Numbered from the stretch's first letter, positions 37,759 to 50,904 are shown. The stretch is DNA of 64,000 nt from an uncultured Fimbriimonadaceae bacterium (GCA_937961665.1 CALGMO010000082.1:2122-66121), one strand, 5' to 3'. Notes: generated from the sequence alone by a model not told the origin. A program made the numbers and translations.

Positions 37759-40161
37759 ATGCTCCGATTCCGCTCCGTCGCGGTGCTTGCAGCGTTGCCC
37801 CTGTGCGCCCTCGCGTTGGCCAAGGAGCCGGTCACCCTCCGCTTCACGGTGTGGGACGGCGACGAGTCGCTGAGGGTGATCAAGCGCATCCTGGCGCAGT
37901 TCGAGAGGGAGAACCCGGACATCCGCGTGAAGCTCGAGCCGATCACGGACTACGTCTCCTACCACCAGAAGATGATCACCATGTACGCGGCCGGCGTCGC
38001 CCCGGACGTGTGCATGATGGACATGCCGAACTTCCAGGCTCTGGCCAAGCGCGGCGCACTGGTGCCTCTGAACGACCTGATGGCCAAGACGCCCGGCTTC
38101 GACATCAAGGAGTACTACGAGCCGATCGTTCGGGCGCACAGCTACCAGGGCAAGCTATACGTCCTGCCGAGGGACATCGCCCCGATGGGCCTCGTCTACT
38201 ACAACAAGCGCCTGTTCGACGAGGCCGGCATCCCGTATCCCGACGGCACTTGGACGTGGGACTTCCAACCTCGGCCCGAGCTCCGCGAGAAGTGCTTCAC
38301 CTGGGTGATGCAGCAACTCACCAAGGTGGACAAGAACGGCAAGAAGATCCAGTGGGGGTTCGCGCCGGGATGGCCCGAGCTGTTCGCCACCACGCTCACC
38401 TACTCCTACGGCGGCCGGTACACCGACAACCCCGAGGCGCCCACCAAGGTGCTCATCAACGAGCCCAAAACGGTTAAGGCCTACCAGTTCGCCGCGGACT
38501 GCATGAACAAGTACGGCTGGATCCCCAACCAGAACGACCTGCTGGGCCAGCTGCAGTCCACGACCCAGATGCTGTTCGTGAACCAGAAGATCGCGATGTT
38601 CCAGAACGGCATCTGGGAGGTCCCGAACATGAGGAAGTACCTCAAGCCGGGCGAGAAGGGGTTCTTCGAGTGGGACATCACGCTGTTCCCGGCGTACAAG
38701 GACGGCCGGCGCGCGGCGCCAACCGGCGGATCGGGCTACGCGATCTTCACGTCGACCAAGCACCTGGACGAGGCCTGGCGCCTCACCCGCTACATGTCCG
38801 GCCCCGTGGCGATGACGTACATGGCCCAAGCCGGGATCGCCCAGCCCGCGATCCGCAAGCTGGCCCTCACCCCGGACGTGTGGCTTCCCGGACCCAACAC
38901 CCCCAAGGAGCAGCTGTACCCCTACAGCCGCATCTGGACCGACCGCGCGGTGCCCTACGTCGTGTTCAGCGAGAACGCCGACTACTGGCCCGAGGTGGGC
39001 GGACGGATGCGCGCGGGCATGGACCTGCTCTGGAACGGCCAGAAGGACGCCAAGGAGACCCTGGACCGCGGCGCGAGGGAGGCCCAGCAGCGCCTCGACG
39101 CGATCCTCAAGGAGCAGCGCAACCCGCCGTACAACTGGGTCGCGGGGGGCGTCGTCGGGCTGCTCATCGCGGCGGCCATCGCGCTGTGGGTGTTCTGGCC
39201 GGAGCGGAAGATCCGCTACACGCACCGGGAGAAGCTCGAGAGCAGGTCGGCGTTCCTGTTCGCCAGCCCTTGGATCGTCGGCATGATCGTGTTCACGCTG
39301 GGGCCGATGATCCTCTCGCTGCTGATGGGCTTCGCCGACTGGGACATCATCCGGCAGGCCAAGTGGCGCGGCCTGGGCAACTTCCACGAGGCGTTCTTCG
39401 TGGATCCGGTCTTCTGGAAGTCGCTCCGCGTGACGTTCGTGTACACGTTCGTGGCGGTGCCGCTGGGCCTGATCGGCTCCCTGGCGCTCGCGCTGCTGAT
39501 GAACCAGAAGGTGCGGGGCATCCCGCTGTTCCGGACTTTCTACTACATCCCCTCGCTCGCTTCGCTGGTGGCCGCCTCGCTGATCTGGCGCCGCGTGTTC
39601 CAGCCGGAGGGCGGCCTGCTGAACACCCTGCTCTACAGCCCGGTGGGCGAGTGGCTGGGCATCCCGAAGCTGCTCGCCGAGTGGGCCCAGGTGCCGGCCG
39701 GCCAGCAGATCAACTGGCTGGGAACGGAGCAGACGGCTCTGCCGGCTCTGATCATCATGTCCCTGTGGGGCATCGGCGGAGGGATGGTGATCCTTCTGGC
39801 GGGCCTGCAGGGGATTCCGCAGTTCTACTACGAGGCCGCGACGCTCGACGGGGCAGGCATCTGGGACCGCTTCAAGGCCGTCACCCTGCCGCTGCTCAGC
39901 CCGTCGCTGTTCTTCTCGCTGGTCACCGGTTTCATCGGCTCGTTCCAGGTGTTCACCCAGGCGTTCGTGATGACCGGAGGCGGGCCGAACGACGCCACGA
40001 GGTTCTTCATGTTCCACCTGTATTCCCAGGCTTTCCAGAACCTGAGGATGGGATACGCCAGCGCCCTGGCCTGGATCCTGTTCTTCATCATCCTGATCTT
40101 CACGCTCATCCAGTTCAAGATGAGCAAGTGGGTGTACTACGAGGCTGAGGTGAAGAAGTGA
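37759..40161 (+). CDS. Fusion protein: CUT1-type extracellular solute-binding protein + linker TM helix + MalF/UgpA-type ABC permease
   Basis: Single 800-aa ORF. Signal peptide MLRFRSVAVLAALPLCALALAKE. SBP family-1-like body to about aa 455. TM helix WVAGGVVGLLIAAAIALWVFW (aa 460-480, nt 39136-39198). The permease has the EAA-loop region YEAATLDGAGIWDRFKAVTLPLL. Confidence 0.8.
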   Translation: MLRFRSVAVLAALPLCALALAKEPVTLRFTVWDGDESLRVIKRILAQFERENPDIRVKLEPITDYVSYHQKMITMYAAGVAPDVCMMDMPNFQALAKRGALVPLNDLMAKTPGFDIKEYYEPIVRAHSYQGKLYVLPRDIAPMGLVYYNKRLFDEAGIPYPDGTWTWDFQPRPELREKCFTWVMQQLTKVDKNGKKIQWGFAPGWPELFATTLTYSYGGRYTDNPEAPTKVLINEPKTVKAYQFAADCMNKYGWIPNQNDLLGQLQSTTQMLFVNQKIAMFQNGIWEVPNMRKYLKPGEKGFFEWDITLFPAYKDGRRAAPTGGSGYAIFTSTKHLDEAWRLTRYMSGPVAMTYMAQAGIAQPAIRKLALTPDVWLPGPNTPKEQLYPYSRIWTDRAVPYVVFSENADYWPEVGGRMRAGMDLLWNGQKDAKETLDRGAREAQQRLDAILKEQRNPPYNWVAGGVVGLLIAAAIALWVFWPERKIRYTHREKLESRSAFLFASPWIVGMIVFTLGPMILSLLMGFADWDIIRQAKWRGLGNFHEAFFVDPVFWKSLRVTFVYTFVAVPLGLIGSLALALLMNQKVRGIPLFRTFYYIPSLASLVAASLIWRRVFQPEGGLLNTLLYSPVGEWLGIPKLLAEWAQVPAGQQINWLGTEQTALPALIIMSLWGIGGGMVILLAGLQGIPQFYYEAATLDGAGIWDRFKAVTLPLLSPSLFFSLVTGFIGSFQVFTQAFVMTGGGPNDATRFFMFHLYSQAFQNLRMGYASALAWILFFIILIFTLIQFKMSKWVYYEAEVKK

Positions 40162-43619: not shown

Positions 43620-44192
43620 TCACCCGCACTCGGCGTGGCGGAAGCAGGTCGTCAGGTGGTCGTTGACCATCCCTGCGGCCTGCATGTAGGCGTAGCAGAT
43701 CGTCGGCCCGACGAAGCAGAAGCCTCGCGCGGAGAGCTCCCGGCTCATCGAGCGGGCCTCCGGGCTTGTGGTTGGAACGTCGCGCGGGTCGGCCCATCGG
43801 TTGCGGATCGTCCGGCCGTCGGTGAAGCGCCACACGAACGCGTCGAACGAGCCGAACTGCTCCTGCACCGGCAGGAAGGCGCGGGCGTTGCGGACCGCGC
43901 CCTCGATCTTCCGTCGGTTGCGGATGATGCCCTCGTCCCGCATCAGCCGCTGGAGGTCCGCCTCGGTGAAGCCGGCGACCCGCACCGGGTCGAAGCCCGC
44001 GAAGGCTCGGCGGTAGCCCTCGCGGCGCTTCAGGATGGTCAGCCAGCTCAGGCCGGCCTGGGCGCCGTCCAGCACGAGGAACTCGAAGTGCCTGCGGTCG
44101 TCGTGAACCGGCACGCCCCACTCCTCGTCGTGGTACGCGATCTCCAGCGGGTGTTTGGCCCAGGGGCACCGGACTCGGGTGTCGGCGTCCAT
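43620..44192 (-). CDS. tag: DNA-3-methyladenine glycosylase I
   Basis: From the internal Met: RCPWAKHPLEIAYHDEEWGVPVHDDRRHFEFLVLDGAQAGLSWLTILKRR...IIRNRRKI..., which is typical Tag. The upstream 75 codons of the track ORF are rejected. Confidence 0.9.
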   Translation of the reverse strand: MDADTRVRCPWAKHPLEIAYHDEEWGVPVHDDRRHFEFLVLDGAQAGLSWLTILKRREGYRRAFAGFDPVRVAGFTEADLQRLMRDEGIIRNRRKIEGAVRNARAFLPVQEQFGSFDAFVWRFTDGRTIRNRWADPRDVPTTSPEARSMSRELSARGFCFVGPTICYAYMQAAGMVNDHLTTCFRHAECG

Positions 44193-44283
44193 TCCTGGGG
44201 GCCATCTTGGCCCGCGTGCGGGGCCGCCTGCTGGGCCGCGGTCGCGGGACCGGACGATTTCGGGAGGTAGCCTGACGGCAGCC

Positions 44284-44739
44284 ATGGGCGCAACGATGAG
44301 GTTCGACGGCAGGATCGAGCGCGTCGGCGCGAGAGCCCTGATCGCGCTGCCCGAAGAACCGCGCGAGGTCTGGGGCGACCGTCCGAGGTACGACGTCGCG
44401 GGATCGGTCGGCGGCAAGCCTTACCGCGGAAGGGTGGTCTTTCTGGACGGGCGCGCGTGGCTGCCGACCGGACCCGCCTTCCTCCGAGACGCCGGCCTCG
44501 CCCTCGGGCAGACGGTGAGCGTGGAGGTTGGTCTGGAGTGGCCCAGCCTCGAGGACCTCGAGCCTGACTTCCGGGCGGCGATCGAGGCCAGCCCCGCCGC
44601 GCGCGCCGCCTTCGAGGGGATGAACACCTTCTGCCGCAGGAACTGGGTTCGGTACGTGGCGGAGGCCAAGCGGCCGGAGACGCGCGCCCGGAGGATCGCC
44701 GAGGCGGTCCAGCGCCTCGAGGAAGGAGACGCCGGCTAG
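44284..44739 (+). CDS. DUF1905 / YdeI (OmpD-associated) family protein
   Basis: The N-terminal beta-barrel-like part MRFDGRIERVG...KPYRGRVVFLDGRAWLP and the C-terminal FCRRNWVRYVAEAKRPETRARRIAEAV are typical of YdeI-like proteins. Confidence 0.7.
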   Translation: MGATMRFDGRIERVGARALIALPEEPREVWGDRPRYDVAGSVGGKPYRGRVVFLDGRAWLPTGPAFLRDAGLALGQTVSVEVGLEWPSLEDLEPDFRAAIEASPAARAAFEGMNTFCRRNWVRYVAEAKRPETRARRIAEAVQRLEEGDAG

Positions 44740-46109
44740 CCCGAGGGCTTCTTGCCCTGGTCCAGGTGCACGACGGTGCCCATGAGCGTCTTCTCGGCCT
44801 CTCCGGTCTGGCCGCTCTGCAGGGCCCGAAGCGCCTGGGTCACCTCCTGCGCCTCCGCGACTCGGCCTTCGGCCAGAAGCAGGGCCTGCGTCTTCTGGAG
44901 CTCGGCCACCGCGGCCTGGGGGCTCAGCGCCTGCGTCTTCATGCCCAGGATGGTGCGCTCGACGGCGCGCGACGCCGCGGCGACCTGCGCGGCGGAGGCC
45001 ACGCGCGGGTCGGGCGGCACCGAGTAGCGCGCCGGATCGGCGGTGAACTCCATCACGAAGTCCAGATCCACCGTCGCGTTGCCGCTGTTCAGGCAGTCCT
45101 CGTACTCCAGAGTGCCGGAGGCCACCCGGTACCAGCCCAGCGGGTGGTTGGGAAACTCGAGGTCGAGCACGTGCTCGATCGCGCTGCCGCGCTCGAGATC
45201 GGCAAGGGGAACGTCGAACTCGCGCTGGCCCGGCGAGGGGGTCTGGCCGGCGACGCTGCGCGCCTCCACCCAGCGCGCCAGTTTCAACCGCAGCCGAAGG
45301 TTGCGGGCCACGACGGTCATGAGCCGCTCGATCTCCGCGCGGAAGATCTCGGGGATCAGCTCCGGGCGCGACACGTAGTAGTGGTTGCCGCCGGCGCGCT
45401 TGGCCATGGCGGCGAGAAGCTCCTCGTTGTAGTCGGGCCCAAAGCCGAGCAGGGTGAGCGTCGTGCCGCGCTCGCGCACCGCCGCCGCGGCGTTCACCAG
45501 GCTCGGGAAGTCGCGCACCCCAACGGTCGGCTCTCCGTCGGTCAGGAGCAGCATGCGCGAGGCCCGGCCGGTCTCCTGCGCCTGCACGATCTGCTGCAAG
45601 CCCAGGTTCACTCCGTCGTAAAGATTGGTCGTGTTGCCGATGGTCAGGCGGGCGATGCCGTCCAGGATCGGCTGCTTCTGGGTCACCCTCTGGGGCGGCA
45701 TCAGCACCTGGGCCGTCTCGTCGAACGCCACGATGCTCAGCACGTCGTTCGGCGTGAGCAGGTCCACCACGTAGCGGCAGGCCTGCTTCACGTATTCGAG
45801 CGGCGGGCCCTCCATCGACCCGGACCGGTCGATGACCAGACACAGGTTCATGGGCGTCCTCGCCGCCGGCCCGAGGAGCGTGTCCCCTTGGGCCGCGGTC
45901 AGGGCCAGCAGGAACTGCTCGCGAGCCGGACCGTTGGCCATCGTGGCCTCGCGGCTCGGCACGACCTCGGCCCTCAGCGCCTGCAGAGGGGCCATGGCCG
46001 TGGTGCGCATCCCCGCGCCGAGCCCGGAGGCCATCGCCTGCGTCCTGGCGGGATCGGCTCCGGGAGGGGGCGCGGCCTGCGTCTTGTTGGGGTCGAAGTT
46101 GGGGTTCAT
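44736..46109 (-). CDS. von Willebrand factor A (vWA) domain protein with complete MIDAS motif
   Basis: Starts at MNPNFDPNK. MIDAS LVIDRSGSMEG, then ...NTTNLYDG... and LLLTDGEPT. An uncharacterised C-terminal half of about 200 aa follows. The ATG overlaps the upstream stop (ATGA 46106-46109). Confidence 0.85.
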   Translation of the reverse strand: MNPNFDPNKTQAAPPPGADPARTQAMASGLGAGMRTTAMAPLQALRAEVVPSREATMANGPAREQFLLALTAAQGDTLLGPAARTPMNLCLVIDRSGSMEGPPLEYVKQACRYVVDLLTPNDVLSIVAFDETAQVLMPPQRVTQKQPILDGIARLTIGNTTNLYDGVNLGLQQIVQAQETGRASRMLLLTDGEPTVGVRDFPSLVNAAAAVRERGTTLTLLGFGPDYNEELLAAMAKRAGGNHYYVSRPELIPEIFRAEIERLMTVVARNLRLRLKLARWVEARSVAGQTPSPGQREFDVPLADLERGSAIEHVLDLEFPNHPLGWYRVASGTLEYEDCLNSGNATVDLDFVMEFTADPARYSVPPDPRVASAAQVAAASRAVERTILGMKTQALSPQAAVAELQKTQALLLAEGRVAEAQEVTQALRALQSGQTGEAEKTLMGTVVHLDQGKKPSG

Positions 46110-47491
46110 GCTTGCTCCACGCGGAAATCGGTGCCTCCGAGGCGCAGCACGTCGCCGGCCTTGGCGACGGCGTGGCTCACACGCTGGCCGTTCAGAAACG
46201 TGCCGTTGGTGCTCCCGAGGTCGAGCACGGAGAGACCTCCCGGCGCGGGCTCGAGGACCGCGTGCCGACGGCTGGCCATCGGGTCGGCGACCAGTGGCGA
46301 GCCCGGCACGTCCCGGCCCAGCTCCATGCGGGAGGCGACCGGGATCCTCTGCCCCGCCAGCGGCCCGCCCAGCGGCACCAGCGATAGGCCGGCGGACGCC
46401 GCCGCTGGCGACACCGCGATCGTGGGCTGGCCCCCGCCCGAGGGCACGACGACCGTGGGCTGACCGGCCAAAGGCGGGCCGCCCGCGGTGGCCATCGCCA
46501 CGGGCTGGGCGCCGCTGGGGGCCTGCACCTGGGTCTGCCACTGCTGCCGGAGGGCCTCCGCCGCCCGCGCGGGCGCCGAGCCCTCGCGCATCACGAACTC
46601 CAGCCGAGTCGAGCCCACTTGGATCAGCGCCCCGGAGAACAGCGGCACCTGGCGGATCGGCGTGCCGTTCACGAACGTCCCGCCCGGCGCGCCGCAGTCG
46701 GCCAGGTAGTAGGTTCCGCCGTGCAGCTGGATCACCGCGTGCTGGGGAGCCACGGCGGGGTCGTCCAGGATCGGGATGTGCGCCAGCTCGCTCCGGCCGA
46801 TCGTGGTCTCGGCCGCGTCCACGATCCACTCGCGGTACTCGTTGCGCCCGTAGATGCGCCGGACCCAGGCGGTTCGGGTCGCCCGGATGATCAGGCTGGT
46901 GAACAGGCCCACGCCCCCGCCCGTCGCCACCGCCAGGATCGCCCGTCCCGTGGTTCCCACCTCGTCGCCGCCCCGCACCGTCTGCACCAGGGGCGAGAGC
47001 GCCAGGCTGGCGAAGTCGAACGTCAGGCCTCCCAGGCCCGCGCCCAGGGCGCCGCCGACCAGCGCGTAGCGGGCCCTCCGCCAGCTCCTCGAGGGGATCG
47101 CCGCGGCCAGGCCGATCGTCGCCCCGATGGGAACGAACGCCACGAACCGGGCGGGGAGCGTCGTGGCGTGGATCCCCGGCCGGGTCAGCACGTCCCCGAA
47201 GAACAGGCTCGAGAGCGCTCCGCCGAGGCCCGCGCCCACCGTGCCGCCCACCGCCCCCAAGACGAGGCCCGCGCCCAAGCCCCGCCAGACGTGCGCGGGG
47301 CTTCCTTGGGCCCGGCCCTGCACCGCACCCAGCGTGGAGCCCACCAGCGCCCCCAGCAGGGCCATGAAGGTCGCGCCCCACGAGTCCCACCGCGGGTCGA
47401 AGAACATCGTGGGCGCGAAGGGCTCCATCAGCGCGAACGCCGTGAGTCCGGCCACGGCCCCGGCCAGCGCGGTGAACAGCACGAAGCCCAT
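46106..47491 (-). CDS. Polytopic Gly-rich membrane protein with two cytoplasmic FHA domains (first one degenerate)
   Basis: The N-terminal ~200 aa hold GxxxG-rich TM segments. FHA1 reads IGRSE...VAPQHAV...DCGAPGGTFVNG. FHA2 reads LGRD...ASRRHAV...DLGSTNGTFLNG. Confidence 0.8.
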   Translation of the reverse strand: MGFVLFTALAGAVAGLTAFALMEPFAPTMFFDPRWDSWGATFMALLGALVGSTLGAVQGRAQGSPAHVWRGLGAGLVLGAVGGTVGAGLGGALSSLFFGDVLTRPGIHATTLPARFVAFVPIGATIGLAAAIPSRSWRRARYALVGGALGAGLGGLTFDFASLALSPLVQTVRGGDEVGTTGRAILAVATGGGVGLFTSLIIRATRTAWVRRIYGRNEYREWIVDAAETTIGRSELAHIPILDDPAVAPQHAVIQLHGGTYYLADCGAPGGTFVNGTPIRQVPLFSGALIQVGSTRLEFVMREGSAPARAAEALRQQWQTQVQAPSGAQPVAMATAGGPPLAGQPTVVVPSGGGQPTIAVSPAAASAGLSLVPLGGPLAGQRIPVASRMELGRDVPGSPLVADPMASRRHAVLEPAPGGLSVLDLGSTNGTFLNGQRVSHAVAKAGDVLRLGGTDFRVEQA

Positions 47492-47492
47492 G

Positions 47493-48752
47493 TCAACCTT
47501 CGAATCGGTAGCGCGCGGCGCCGAACTGGACGGTGTCGCCCGGCCTCAGCTCCGCTTCCCCTGTGATCTTGACGCCGTTCACGGTCGTTCCGTTCGTGCT
47601 TCCCAGGTCGCGGACCACCACCCTCGGCCCGGAGCGCTCGATCTGGGCGTGCCGGCGGGAGACGGTCGGCTCGTCGGGGATCGCCAGGCCCGCGACCTCC
47701 CGTCCCACCTCGGTGACGCCCTCCGGCAGGTCGAACAGCTCGCCGTGGGCGGACACCAGCCGCGGCCTAGGTGCTGGGGCGGCCCCGGGGGTTGGGTCCG
47801 CGCCCTCGAGGCGGATCGTCGGAGGCGGCTCGGCGGCCTTCGGCTGGGGCGGGGCGGCGCTGGGCGGCTGGGGAGCCTGCCCCTCCGGCACCTGAACCCC
47901 CATCTGCTCCAGCCTCTGCCGAACCCAATCCTTCCGTTGCGCAAGGAGGCGGAACCCGAACCAGACCGCCGCCGCGCCGATCACCAGGCCCACCAGCGCC
48001 CCCCACAGGCCTCCCCCGGGGCGCTCCGCAGGGGCCTCGGTCGCCGGGGGCGCCGCGGGCTCCGACTTCGTCTCGGTCTTGTCCTCGGATTCGGTCTCCC
48101 GCTGAAGGTCCTTGTCGGAGGAGGGTTCCGCCGAGAGGTCCACGTCCACGGGCAGCGCGACGGCCAACAGGCTGGCCCCCTCGGTCTGGGCGGGGGCCGG
48201 GGAGTCGAGCACGAACTTCTTCGGCGCGAACTCGTAGGTCTTGCCGTTCGAGCTGACCATGCCGGACACGGTCACCTCGCCCTTGCGCACCAGGCTGAAG
48301 CGGGCCTCGCCGTTGCCCGCCGGGGAGAGCAGCGCCTCCTGCTGGCGCTGGCGGTCCTTCAGCCGAACCAGTCCGGAGGCCGGCGGGCCGTTGCGCCCCT
48401 GCACCCGCACCGTGACGCCGTCGTAGAACAGGAAGTCCTCCTCCAGAACCTTCGGCGACGCCTTGAGGGCGGCCAGAGGCACGACGGCCACGACCCCCTT
48501 GGCCGGGTCCCACACGGCCAGCGAGTCGGCGCCCTTCTCCGGCGGCTGGAGCTTGTAGCGGGAGGTCGCCCACACCGCGGACCCGGGCTTGGGGGCGGCC
48601 GGGTCGGGCTTCTCGGGCAGAGAGACGGGCAAACCCTCGCAGAGCCACACAACCTTCGGCAGGTCGTCGGGGAGAGCGACGTCGATGGTCTCCTGGGCCA
48701 GCGCGCCCGCCGACAGGAGCACGGTCGCTAGGATGAGGGTTCCAAACCGCAC
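47493..48752 (-). CDS. Single-pass membrane protein: signal peptide, extracytoplasmic Ig/CarboxypepD_reg-like domain, TM helix, Pro-rich linker, C-terminal FHA domain
   Basis: GTG start gives VRFGTLILATVLLSAGALAQ. TM LWGALVGLVIGAAAVWFGF. FHA VGRE...VSRRHAQI...DLGSTNGTTVNG. The stop lies 1 nt before the next start. Confidence 0.75.
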   Translation of the reverse strand: MRFGTLILATVLLSAGALAQETIDVALPDDLPKVVWLCEGLPVSLPEKPDPAAPKPGSAVWATSRYKLQPPEKGADSLAVWDPAKGVVAVVPLAALKASPKVLEEDFLFYDGVTVRVQGRNGPPASGLVRLKDRQRQQEALLSPAGNGEARFSLVRKGEVTVSGMVSSNGKTYEFAPKKFVLDSPAPAQTEGASLLAVALPVDVDLSAEPSSDKDLQRETESEDKTETKSEPAAPPATEAPAERPGGGLWGALVGLVIGAAAVWFGFRLLAQRKDWVRQRLEQMGVQVPEGQAPQPPSAAPPQPKAAEPPPTIRLEGADPTPGAAPAPRPRLVSAHGELFDLPEGVTEVGREVAGLAIPDEPTVSRRHAQIERSGPRVVVRDLGSTNGTTVNGVKITGEAELRPGDTVQFGAARYRFEG

Positions 48753-50281
48753 CTTGAAAGAATTGTAGCCCGCGCCAAGGGCAGGGCATCGGCCAGCTCC
48801 GAAGCGAGGAACCCGAACGATCCCAGGCGCTCCAGAAGCAGATCGCCGGCCAGGCCGTGCCAGTAGGCGCCGCAAGCCGCCGCCGAAAGCTCCGGCATCT
48901 GCTGCGCCAGCATCGCGCCGATCACCCCGCTGAGCACGTCGCCCATGCCCGCGCAGGCCATGCCGGGGTTGCCCGTGGGGTTCACCAGCAGCGGCTCGCC
49001 CTCCTCGGCGGCCACGGTGTAGGCGCCCTTGAGCACGACGGTCTTGCCGAACCGCCGGGCCGCCTCCCGGGCGTATTGGAAACGCCCGTTCTGGACCTCG
49101 GCCGTGCTGGCTCCCATCAGCCGGGCCATCTCGCCCGGATGCGGGGTCAGCACGCAGGGGCCCGAGGGAGGGGCGGCCTGCCCCTGGGCGATGAGGTTCA
49201 GAGCGTCCGCGTCCAGCACCGACGGCCCCTGCCACAGAAGCCACAGCTTGGAGAGCAGCCGGGCCACGGCCGGAGACTGCGTCAGCCCGGGGCCGAACAC
49301 CGCCGCGTCGAACCGGCCGTGCGCCACGATCCGCTCGGCGGCCTCCTCGGCGATCGCGCCGTCGGCCTCCGGCAGGGGCAGCACGCACGCCTCGGGCAGC
49401 TGCGCCGCTACCGCCGCGCACACGGAAGGAACGGAGGCCACGGTGACCAGGCCCGCGCCGGCCCTGAGCGCGCCCCGGGCGGCGAGCGCCGCGGCGCCGG
49501 GATAGTGCGCGCTGCCGGCCACGATCAGCAACCGGCCGCTGTCGCCCTTGTGGCTCGAGCGCATCCGATCGGGCAGCTGCGCGCCCACCCAGGCGTCGTC
49601 CAGCAGAAAGGCGTCGGTGTGCTGCTCCAGGAGCGGTCGGGGGAAGCCGATCGGGTCGACCGACCACTTGCCCGAGTGCTCCATGCCGATCCCCTGGAAG
49701 AGGAACGGCTTGGGCAGGCCGAAGGTGACGGTGCGGCACGCCCAGACGCTCTCGCCCAGCTCCTCGCCGGTGTCGCAGTGGATGCCGCTCGGCAGATCCA
49801 CAGCGATCACGGGGGCGCCGCTGGCGTTGATGGCCTCGATGGCCTCGCGGATCGGTCCCTGAACCTCACCCCTCGCCCCGGTCCCCAGCAGGGCGTCGAC
49901 GATCAGGTCGCGGCACCCGACGCACTCCAGCTTCTCCTGATACTGGTCGTCGCCCACGAACAGCGGTTCGACTCCGGCGGCTTCCGCTTCGGCCAGCCGC
50001 GCGGCGCAGTCGGGAGACAGCTCCTCCCGTCGGGCGGCGATCAGGCAGTCCACGTGGTATCCGTGCCGGTGCGCCAGCCGCGCCACCACCAGGCCGTCGC
50101 CGCCGTTGTTGCCCTTGCCGCACACCACCGTCACGCGCCCGCCGTCCGGCAGCATCTCCTGGACCGCCCGGAACACGGCGTTGCCGGCGTGCTCCATCAG
50201 CTGCGCCGTGGTCATGCCGAAGGCCTCGATGGCCTGGCGGTCGAGCTGTCGGCAGCGCTGCGAGTCGGCGATCCAGTTCAC
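48728..50281 (-). CDS. nnr: Bifunctional NAD(P)H-hydrate repair enzyme Nnr (YjeF_N epimerase plus YjeF_C dehydratase)
   Basis: VVCGKGNNGGDGLV in the N-domain. The C-domain has HKGDSGRLLIVAGS..., VLTPHPGE and GNPGMACAGMGDVLSG. The GTG start overlaps the upstream stop (GTGA 50278-50281). Confidence 0.88.
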   Translation of the reverse strand: MNWIADSQRCRQLDRQAIEAFGMTTAQLMEHAGNAVFRAVQEMLPDGGRVTVVCGKGNNGGDGLVVARLAHRHGYHVDCLIAARREELSPDCAARLAEAEAAGVEPLFVGDDQYQEKLECVGCRDLIVDALLGTGARGEVQGPIREAIEAINASGAPVIAVDLPSGIHCDTGEELGESVWACRTVTFGLPKPFLFQGIGMEHSGKWSVDPIGFPRPLLEQHTDAFLLDDAWVGAQLPDRMRSSHKGDSGRLLIVAGSAHYPGAAALAARGALRAGAGLVTVASVPSVCAAVAAQLPEACVLPLPEADGAIAEEAAERIVAHGRFDAAVFGPGLTQSPAVARLLSKLWLLWQGPSVLDADALNLIAQGQAAPPSGPCVLTPHPGEMARLMGASTAEVQNGRFQYAREAARRFGKTVVLKGAYTVAAEEGEPLLVNPTGNPGMACAGMGDVLSGVIGAMLAQQMPELSAAACGAYWHGLAGDLLLERLGSFGFLASELADALPLARATILSRCGLEPSS

Positions 50282-50904
50282 AGCTCCCACCACCTCAGCT
50301 GGATCGGCGAGCCCGTCCTGCGGGCCGGCATCCACCTCGAGTGGCCGTCTGCGGCGACGCGGTTCAAGCCGCCCCGGAACGACCCCCTGCCCTGCATGAA
50401 GTGATTCTGCCACAGGGCGGTGCGAGGCGGGCTAGCGATGTCGGACTCGGACACGGGGCCGGCGTGCGGCCGGTCCGGAGAGGGGATCGAGTTGACGAAC
50501 ACGAACGCGTTGGCCTGGTAGTTCGTCGACGGCCCGTTCTCCGGCACCGTGCGCTCCTGCAGCGGCGAGAACCAGATCTCGCGGCTGCCGGCGAACGGGG
50601 CCACGGCCACGGCGACGGGGTGGCCGTCGAACCGGTTGGAGCGGTCGCTCGGGTCGTCGCGGGCGAGGGTGTCGCTGAAGGTGCCCGGCACGTGGCGGGG
50701 TCCGAGATCGTGGGGGAACACGCCGTCGTAGGCCTCGGTGTACAGGAGCGTGGCCATCCCGATCTGCCGAAGGTGGGTGAGGCAGGCAGCCTGCTTGGCG
50801 CTCGACTTGGCCGAAGCCAGCACGGGCAGCAGGATGGCCGAGAGGATGGCGACGACGGCCATGACCACCAGCAGCTCGATCAGCGTGAACGCGCTCTTGC
50901 GCAC
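50278..50904 (-). CDS. Prepilin-type N-terminal cleavage/methylation domain protein (pseudopilin-like, H-X9-DG type)
   Basis: MRKSAFTLIELLVVMAVVAILSAILLPVLASAK, then CLTHLRQIGMATLLYTEAYDGVFP and the C-terminal NRVAADGHSRW. Confidence 0.85.
   Translation of the reverse strand: MRKSAFTLIELLVVMAVVAILSAILLPVLASAKSSAKQAACLTHLRQIGMATLLYTEAYDGVFPHDLGPRHVPGTFSDTLARDDPSDRSNRFDGHPVAVAVAPFAGSREIWFSPLQERTVPENGPSTNYQANAFVFVNSIPSPDRPHAGPVSESDIASPPRTALWQNHFMQGRGSFRGGLNRVAADGHSRWMPARRTGSPIQLRWWEL

Follow-up and report, generated by a model that had tools for sequence, protein, structure and literature searches.

A coupled FHA-FHA-vWA gene triad of Fimbriimonadaceae as the likely membrane-reader and hub part of an ArnA/ArnB-like phosphothreonine switch in Armatimonadota

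Introduction

What might three adjoining genes do that encode two membrane proteins with phosphothreonine-reading domains and a von Willebrand factor A (vWA) protein, when no gene for a kinase or phosphatase lies near them? The question is raised by a stretch of 64,000 nucleotides (the window) from an uncultured Fimbriimonadaceae bacterium (GCA_937961665.1, CALGMO010000082.1:2122-66121). The window lies on a 70.6-kb contig, C82, of a metagenome-assembled genome (MAG) of 2.88 Mb that is 95% complete, and the nearest homologues of its vWA protein carry the names Fimbriimonadales or Fimbriimonadaceae (Armatimonadota). A first-pass annotation of the window took the three genes, called g1, g2 and g3 here, for an orphan, self-contained module of two forkhead-associated (FHA) membrane proteins and a vWA protein. 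We argue that the triad is likely to be the membrane-reader and hub part of a phosphothreonine switch that resembles the ArnA/ArnB system and is conserved across Armatimonadota, with its writer (a kinase), its eraser (a phosphatase) and a soluble reader supplied in trans.

Results

The vWA protein has the architecture of ArnB

The product of g3 had been described as a soluble vWA protein with an intact MIDAS (metal ion-dependent adhesion site) and an uncharacterised C-terminal half. The former description is borne out: Pfam places a VWA domain at residues 88-256 (E 1e-20), and the MIDAS residues D94, S96 and S98 (as D94-x-S96-x-S98), T160/T161 and D191 do not vary in 19 orthologues. The latter is not. 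An AlphaFold2 (AF2) model built on 19 orthologues, with a mean predicted local distance difference test score (pLDDT) of 85.7 and strands assigned by DSSP, consists of a disordered tail (residues 1-43), strands at 45-72 and again at 266-356 that form one sandwich, the vWA domain between them (87-263), and helices at 368-451. Because the sandwich strands come from both sides of the vWA domain, that domain is inserted into an eight-stranded beta-sandwich, as in ArnB. The C-terminal half is thereby explained as part of this sandwich followed by a four-helix bundle, since the tripartite topology of a split beta-sandwich, an inserted vWA domain and a bundle of helices at the C-terminus is the one described for ArnB and its paralogue vWA2 (PMC6509490; see also PMC12852372).

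A Foldseek search of the PDB with the g3 model returned the ArnA-ArnB complex as the best match (8S05, E 6e-24, template-modelling score 0.76 on the target), along with a vWA protein of Catenulispora acidiphila (4FX5, E 4e-23, score 0.66/0.70) and the ArnB paralogue vWA2 (5A8J, E 5e-21, score 0.73 on the target); the inter-alpha-inhibitor heavy chain and then Sec23/24 followed at lower ranks. In a phmmer search, 5A8J (E 8e-8) and 8S05 (E 1.4e-7) were aligned over the vWA domain only, and identity in the structural alignment was 17%.

Of 151 Armatimonadota genomes, 104 encode orthologues of the vWA protein, which are near single-copy and for the most part 42-66% identical. They are better conserved than the product of nnr, the NAD(P)HX repair gene upstream of the triad (48% versus 39% identity in locus L031, 64% versus 53% in L013), which fits a core function. 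Retention across the phylum in near single copy likewise suggests a core envelope or cell-biological function and not an accessory one.

More distant vWA proteins also occur. This genome has a second vWA paralogue (C120:14709-15272, in an open frame of 528 aa) whose similarity is confined to the vWA domain, at about 37% identity, and weaker vWA-domain matches of this kind occur in many relatives. A distant vWA subfamily with 31-34% identity (L047, L048 and L049, in genomes G129, G146 and G048) is without the DPNxTQ tail at the N-terminus; an FHA gene still follows the vWA gene in L047 and L049, where no PP2C or kinase is detectable in the downstream flank of about 8 kb.

A threonine motif recurs in the hub tail and in the linker of g2

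The N-terminal tail of the vWA orthologues, about 45 residues long, carries the motif D-P-N-[RK]-T-Q-[AM]-[MIVFL] in 2.3 copies on average and at least once in 96 of 106 orthologues, and threonines outnumber serines by 530 to 198 across these 106 tails. In the window's g3 the threonine motifs read DPNKT10QAA, DPART23QAM and MRT36TAM. Many bacterial FHA domains prefer a hydrophobic residue three positions after the phosphothreonine (pThr), and the substrate motifs of mycobacterial Hanks kinases, which the tail motif resembles, have an acidic residue upstream and a hydrophobic one at +3. The tail threonines are candidate sites both for a kinase and for the docking of FHA domains. The helix bundle of g3 holds four more threonines that are invariant in the alignment (T386, T392, T407 and T441, in the motifs RTxxG, KTQ, KTQ and EKTL).

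A motif of the same P-T-Q/V-x-hydrophobic type as in the vWA tail is found in the linker between the two FHA domains of g2. It occurs here as QPTVVV and QPTIAV; among the 40 orthologues listed, many have it as PTQAMP and about two thirds in the general form PT[QV]x[MFV].

The membrane proteins g1 and g2 carry canonical and divergent FHA domains

Hydropathy and an AF2 model give g1 a signal peptide-like N-terminus, a beta-sandwich ectodomain (residues ~21-200), one transmembrane segment (~249-267), a Pro-rich linker and a C-terminal FHA domain (331-418), for which Pfam has a single match at residues 348-411 (E 2e-17); pLDDT is 83 overall and about 90 in a beta-rich stretch at 23-199. The FHA residues R351, S365, R366, H368, S385 and N387 are unchanged throughout 51 orthologues, and the modelled domain overlays the FHA domains of Mycobacterium tuberculosis FhaA and of GarA with root-mean-square deviations of 1.2-1.4 Å. 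The single-pass layout and the cytoplasmic FHA domain are therefore as first annotated, but the proposed likeness of the ectodomain to CarboxypepD_reg holds for only 21 of the 51 orthologues (best E 2.4e-7) and is not significant for the window's own protein. No solved structure was matched to the ectodomain, because the fold search was dominated by the FHA domain.

The description of g2 as a polytopic, Gly-rich membrane protein with two FHA domains agrees with Pfam, which finds both domains (E 1e-29), and with a hydropathy profile of six hydrophobic, Gly-rich segments, four of them strong and two weaker, or about six transmembrane segments in residues 1-205. The two domains differ in their binding residues. 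In an alignment of 71 orthologues, FHA2 has the consensus GRE..aSRrHA..DlGSTNGTfVNG, with the canonical Arg, Ser, His and Asn all kept, and FHA1 has the consensus GR...aP.HA...G-sp.Gt.NG, from which the phosphate-binding Ser and Asn are missing in every orthologue examined. Because both residues are lost, FHA1 is probably a phospho-independent interaction domain.

The transmembrane domain of g2 defines a small family: an exhaustive HMMER search of 1.84 billion representatives found it in 162 clusters (at 50% identity), and most of the proteins have 420-500 aa. The hits lack taxonomy labels; few clusters carry names, and all of those are Armatimonadota. Tandem copies of the g2-type gene for a membrane protein with two FHA domains occur in some large Armatimonadota genomes (G045:C105:14251-16931; G087:C10:227264-230051).

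Putative writer, eraser and soluble reader are encoded elsewhere in the genome

A profile search of contig C82 found no Pkinase or PP2C_2 match, so the reported lack of a kinase and a phosphatase holds for the whole contig; it fails for the system. Four Hanks kinases and a PP2C phosphatase are encoded elsewhere in the same MAG, all off C82, and among them are orthologues of genes that adjoin the vWA gene in other Armatimonadota, so that the triad is neither orphan nor self-contained. The genes in question are one for a protein with a Zn ribbon and two FHA domains (Zn-ribbon-FHA2), immediately followed by the PP2C gene, on contig C119, and one on contig C95 for a receptor Hanks kinase whose catalytic core is intact (HRD, DFG, SPE). 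All are reciprocal best hits of the cluster-linked genes in other Armatimonadota, and the scores separate them well from the alternatives within this genome: the kinase reaches 336 bits and the next kinase of this genome 92, Zn-ribbon-FHA2 reaches 167 against 65, and the PP2C is the sole match.

The Zn-ribbon-FHA2 protein has the FHA domain of ArnA among its best PDB sequence matches (E 6e-9), and it opens with a motif of the same type as the vWA tail: MVDPHKTQSLPTDPNKTIAT. The C95 kinase has its kinase domain at residues 1-270, followed by a Pro-rich linker, a single transmembrane segment (350-368) and, on the extracytoplasmic side, about 200 aa that form a helical domain of TPR-like character. 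The cluster-linked PP2C proteins have a conserved N-terminal E-I-T-A-[KE]-[LIY] (MDEITAEY here, MAETNEITAKL in L032, ...REITAKI in L031), and its threonine, with a hydrophobic or aromatic residue at +3, could be an FHA docking site.

The full gene cluster is found in other Armatimonadota

The best 80 loci kept from an alignment-based search with the vWA proteins are all from Armatimonadota, which carries no information on the spread outside the phylum. For a census of gene neighbourhoods we scored 111 non-redundant loci around vWA orthologues by tblastn with the window's proteins and the dispersed partners, and called loci Fimbriimonadales-like when vWA identity was at least 51%. The full order in other Armatimonadota is nnr, g1, g2, vWA, Zn-ribbon-FHA2, PP2C and transmembrane Hanks kinase; in locus L032, Pfam annotation recovers every part of this array, including a protein with Pkinase and TPR domains. 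The three genes of the window are conserved together, as the census asked for by the first-pass annotation confirms: g1-g2 lie directly upstream of vWA in 52 of 66 Fimbriimonadales-like loci (48 of these also with nnr) and in 12 of 29 other loci (11 of these with nnr).

The two groups differ on the downstream side. Zn-ribbon-FHA2, PP2C and kinase are all lacking there in 57 of 60 Fimbriimonadales-like loci, whereas 23 of the 29 loci of other Armatimonadota have Zn-ribbon-FHA2 downstream of vWA, 21 of these with PP2C and 16 with the kinase as well. The whole six-gene array is present in 7 of the 26 loci in other Armatimonadota for which both flanks are available. Two Fimbriimonadales loci (family f2) retain vWA, Zn-ribbon-FHA2 and PP2C side by side, which suggests that the cluster was dispersed stepwise. 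Separation has also affected the other side: where the vWA gene is without g1 and g2 as neighbours, a full-length g2 was found elsewhere in all 16 such genomes examined, in at least 10 of them with a g1-type FHA match directly upstream.

The triad is tightly coupled

Because the G+C content of the window is 70%, lists of open reading frames are full of spurious frames, and we took gene calls from a plot of third-position G+C by frame. This plot and the junction sequences bear out the tight coupling of three consecutive minus-strand genes (Table 1). The g1/g2 boundary reads GGT TGA c ATG, with a spacer of 1 nt; at the g2/g3 boundary, GCA TGA overlaps the next ATG (ATGA), an overlap of 4 nt. The GTG start codon of g1 lies 25 nt within the 3' end of nnr, and nnr is probably co-transcribed with the triad. 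Phylum-wide, nnr stands directly upstream of g1 on the same strand, which may reflect functional coupling or merely conserved synteny.

Beyond nnr, the 5' neighbours are a prepilin-like N_methyl gene and a 462-aa gene of unassigned family (Pfam). On the other side, a YdeI/OmdA gene (DUF1905 and OmdA; 44155-44739, plus strand) runs convergently into the vWA gene and overlaps its stop end by 4 nt, so that no intergenic terminator lies between the two. A scan of 43.5-52.6 kb for promoters and terminators gave no promoter and one terminator-like site outside the operon, and was uninformative. Farther off, the window encodes an 800-aa fusion of an extracellular solute-binding domain (SBP_bac_8/SBP_bac_1) with an ABC permease domain, BPD_transp_1 (37759-40161, plus strand; Pfam).

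Table 1. Positions of the triad, its domains and motifs (in the window) and of related genes on other contigs
Feature	Position	Strand	Description	Basis
g1	47493..48752	-	type-I membrane FHA protein, 419 aa	Pfam, AF2 model, hydropathy
g1 FHA domain	47499..47762	-	cytoplasmic; canonical pThr-binding residues (GR, SRRH, STNG)	sequence and alignment
g2	46106..47491	-	polytopic Gly-zipper-rich membrane protein with 2 cytoplasmic FHA domains	Pfam, hydropathy
g2 FHA1	46592..46852	-	conserved, non-canonical; Arg retained, VAPQH and GAPGG replace phosphate-binding Ser/Asn	
g2 inter-FHA linker	46409..46468	-	two QPT-x-x-V motifs (T346, T357)	sequence
g2 FHA2	46112..46354	-	canonical pThr-binding (GRD...SRRHA...GSTNGT)	alignment
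g3	44736..46109	-	soluble ArnB-architecture vWA hub, 457 aa	Pfam, AF2, Foldseek
g3 N-terminal tail	45981..46109	-	disordered; three Thr motifs	pLDDT <50 for residues 1-41
g3 N-terminal sandwich strands	45894-45977	-	two strands, residues 45-72	DSSP of model
g3 vWA domain	45321..45851	-	intact MIDAS	Pfam; model residues 87-263
g3 C-terminal sandwich strands	45042..45314	-	six strands	DSSP of model
g3 C-terminal bundle	44757..45008	-	four helices	model helices 368-451
nnr	48728..50413	-	YjeF_N and Carb_kinase; NAD(P)HX repair gene	Pfam
Zn-ribbon-FHA2 gene	C119:18870-19748		CPVC-x10-CVDC and two FHA domains	Pfam
PP2C gene	C119:19748-20575 (L131:7749-8573)		immediately after the Zn-ribbon-FHA2 gene	Pfam
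Receptor Hanks kinase gene	C95:1642-3345 (L132)		567 aa	Pfam

A likely phosphothreonine switch with parts in trans

In the switch that we consider likely, g3 would serve as an ArnB-type hub extended by a disordered tail of DPN[RK]-T-Q-x-hydrophobic repeats, and g1 and g2 as membrane-anchored readers with their FHA domains on the cytoplasmic side. The kinase would phosphorylate the tail threonines of g3, and perhaps those of its helix bundle; g1, g2 (through FHA2) and the soluble reader would then compete for the hub by binding the pThr-x-x-hydrophobic sites with their canonical FHA domains, and this binding would decide whether the hub is at the membrane with g1 and g2 or stays with the ArnA-like protein in the cytoplasm. 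Through its MIDAS face the hub would engage a client, and the PP2C would reset the state. The original idea of a transmembrane signalling or assembly module is kept in such a scheme. The case that the first-pass annotation had itself named as contrary, that the triad is the tail of a known system with parts outside the region, largely turned out to apply, but the system is ArnA/ArnB-like and not a type VI secretion system (T6SS), a type VII secretion system (T7SS) or TerY.

Several observations weigh against a switch of this kind. The similarity of g3 to ArnB is at the level of the fold only, with low identity and phmmer alignments limited to the vWA domain, and common descent of the whole module is therefore unproven. 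The known phosphosites of ArnB belong to the C-terminal bundle and not to a tail at the N-terminus, ArnA carries a single FHA domain, and the phosphatase of the archaeal system is PP2A and not PP2C. Within the window, the first tail motif of g3 (DPNKTQAA) has Ala and no large hydrophobic residue at +3. The co-occurrence of vWA and g2 speaks for the switch (among the 151 genomes, 91 have both, 13 vWA only, 6 g2 only and 41 neither; odds ratio 48), but the statistic is not corrected for phylogeny; and since g1-g2 and vWA are unlinked or alone in a minority of genomes, the sub-modules may be separable.

We also raise, as a long shot, the idea that phosphorylation gates the relocation of a Sec23/24-like protein in this module, which would then be a core cell-biological regulator specific to Armatimonadota and, driven by a kinase, a bacterial counterpart to the recruitment of the COPII inner-coat core to membranes. 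Graded phosphorylation of several tail sites would shift the hub between the soluble Zn-ribbon/FHA adaptor and the two membrane FHA adaptors. On the membrane side, the beta-sandwich ectodomain of g1 would act as a sensor of the outside, g2 would keep hold of the hub by one phospho-dependent and one phospho-independent FHA domain, and a client from the envelope or from membrane remodelling would be captured at the membrane by the hub's MIDAS face.

Alternative explanations

The main surviving rival to the ArnA/ArnB-like switch is a separable g1-g2 system that merely travels with the hub. The two systems would be independent and only syntenic, g1-g2 being a membrane FHA scaffold of the envelope or of division (compare FhaA and FipA) and the hub working only with the soluble set. 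It draws on g1 and g2 being always paired yet detached from vWA in 14 of the 66 Fimbriimonadales-like loci and in 17 of the 29 others (in G039 they are at 1.40 Mb, with vWA at 2.73 Mb), on the genomes that have only vWA or only g2, and on sub-threshold matches of both proteins to FhaB/FipA. These matches also tell against it, because at 81.4 bits for g2 and 44.7 bits for g1 they are well below the equivalog cut-off of 125 (NF049868), and we rejected membership in that family. The ATGA overlap of g2 and g3, the strength of the vWA/g2 co-occurrence, and the PTQxM-type motif common to the g2 linker and the vWA tail are further evidence that the parts belong together, and the tblastn census of 111 loci, in which RodA, PBP and PASTA genes were not searched specifically, showed no recurring neighbour beyond nnr. 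On balance we find two independent systems unlikely. The self-contained module of the first-pass annotation, read as independent of a kinase and with FHA domains that need no phosphorylation to act, would account for the lack of a kinase and a PP2C on the 70.6-kb contig and for FHA1 of g2, whose lost Ser and Asn make at least one FHA domain here probably phospho-independent. As a whole such a module is very unlikely, since the FHA domain of g1 and FHA2 of g2 keep every pThr-binding residue, orthologues of the kinase, the PP2C and Zn-ribbon-FHA2 are present in the genome and adjoin the triad in sister lineages, and the conserved, threonine-rich tail motif argues for phosphorylation.

Two further identities are highly unlikely. 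A TerY-P triad, which reportedly consists of a vWA protein, a PP2C and a Ser/Thr kinase, matches the vWA, PP2C and Hanks kinase set of the relatives, and the locus might then serve in defence against phages or in stress, as a triad to which FHA proteins were added. This candidate was rejected: the vWA protein has no PADLOC match (E <= 1e-3), nor do g1, g2 and Zn-ribbon-FHA2, and the kinase matches generic models only; g3 is a tripartite ArnB-type protein of 457 aa and not a short TerY; its near single-copy presence at 42-66% identity across the phylum is the pattern of a core gene, unlike patchy defence islands; and the adjacency of vWA, PP2C and kinase is absent from the window and from 57 of 60 Fimbriimonadales-like loci, while elsewhere a Zn-ribbon-FHA gene always lies between. 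Just as unlikely is the cytoplasmic or inner-membrane base of a secretion or motility machine (YscD-like of a type III secretion system, TagH/Fha of a T6SS, or Glt gliding), to which the Pfam family Yop-YscD_cpl on all FHA domains, partial NCBIfam matches to GltG and TagH, and the prepilin-like N_methyl genes nearby might point. All of these matches coincide with the generic FHA domain and stay far below their cut-offs (GltG, NF033760, 84 versus 650 bits; TagH, TIGR03354, 57.8 versus 120), no secretion or motility gene recurs beside the cluster in the 111 loci, and the proximity of N_methyl genes is probably due to chance, because such genes vary in position and orientation across loci and across the genome. 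We rejected a YscD, TagH or GltG base on these grounds.

Discussion

Phospho-switches built from FHA and vWA proteins have been studied by experiment in Sulfolobus and only recently in Deinococcus, and a literature search on the combination of vWA, FHA, PP2C and TerY found no paper. In most Armatimonadota the ArnB-type hub is a near-universal and well-conserved gene, and it is joined to two membrane-embedded FHA readers for which there is no described counterpart. The Fimbriimonadales offer a natural experiment in this respect: writer, eraser and one reader have moved off, and the triad of readers and hub has stayed translationally coupled. This dispersal of the partners implies that kinases encoded in trans need to be considered where an FHA/vWA operon elsewhere looks like an 'orphan'. 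From the repeated and sharply defined threonine motif follow direct predictions that can be tested on the kinase and on the FHA domains, and the system is experimentally tractable because the phylum has cultured members (Fimbriimonas ginsengisoli and Chthonomonas calidirosea). To this field the present analysis adds the split state of the cluster, the numbers of the phylum census, the quantified tail motif, and the small g2 membrane family whose named members are all Armatimonadota.

The known systems that come closest share different parts of the cluster. The actinobacterial set of FhaA, FhaB (FipA), PstP and PknA/PknB likewise brings together a PP2C, a receptor Hanks kinase and FHA readers of which one is anchored in the membrane, and the FHA domain of g1 overlays best on that of M. 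tuberculosis FhaA. It has no vWA hub, however, and the sensor of the kinase here is TPR-like and not PASTA, with no rodA or pbpA neighbour noticed here. The COPII core proteins Sec23 and Sec24 share with g3 the combination of a trunk (vWA), a beta-sandwich and a helical domain (Foldseek E about 1e-12 to 1e-13), but g3 is without their gelsolin domain and in-chain zinc finger, and the template-modelling score is only 0.45-0.5. In Deinococcus radiodurans, the operon DRA0331-DRA0334 encodes a vWA protein, a transmembrane Ser/Thr protein kinase, an FHA protein (called an orthologue of FraH in that study) and an FHA-PP2C protein (bioRxiv 10.64898/2026.01.23.701218). This is a bacterial operon of vWA, membrane Hanks kinase, stand-alone FHA protein and PP2C like the one in other Armatimonadota, a likeness drawn from its description and not from sequence or fold; it lacks membrane FHA proteins comparable to g1 or g2, and its phosphatase bears an FHA domain of its own. 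For the hub alone there is also Caci_2163 of C. acidiphila, the structural-genomics entry 4FX5, which has the same tripartite ArnB-like fold as g3 at 18% identity and has been called a bacterial structural orthologue of ArnB (PMC6509490).

The ArnA/ArnB system of Sulfolobus acidocaldarius (kinases ArnC and ArnD, phosphatase PP2A; PDB 8S05, 5A8J and 5A8I) resembles the Armatimonadota cluster most fully, and it also differs from it in several ways. Identity of the hubs is about 17%, and ArnB is without the 40-aa tail of DPN[RK]TQxM repeats. The soluble reader here has two FHA domains, the phosphatase is a PP2C, and the kinase is of the transmembrane receptor type and has an ectodomain that is TPR-like; the membrane FHA proteins g1 and g2 have no archaeal counterpart, the genes are at three loci in this genome, and there is no archaellum here. 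The likenesses concern the working parts. Both hubs have a split sandwich, an inserted vWA domain with an intact MIDAS and a four-helix bundle with several conserved threonines, and both systems pair a Hanks-type kinase as writer with a Ser/Thr phosphatase as eraser. The partner of the hub is also alike, beginning in each case with an N-terminal Zn ribbon of equal CxxC-x10-CxxC spacing and continuing with FHA. [quoted passage not shown]

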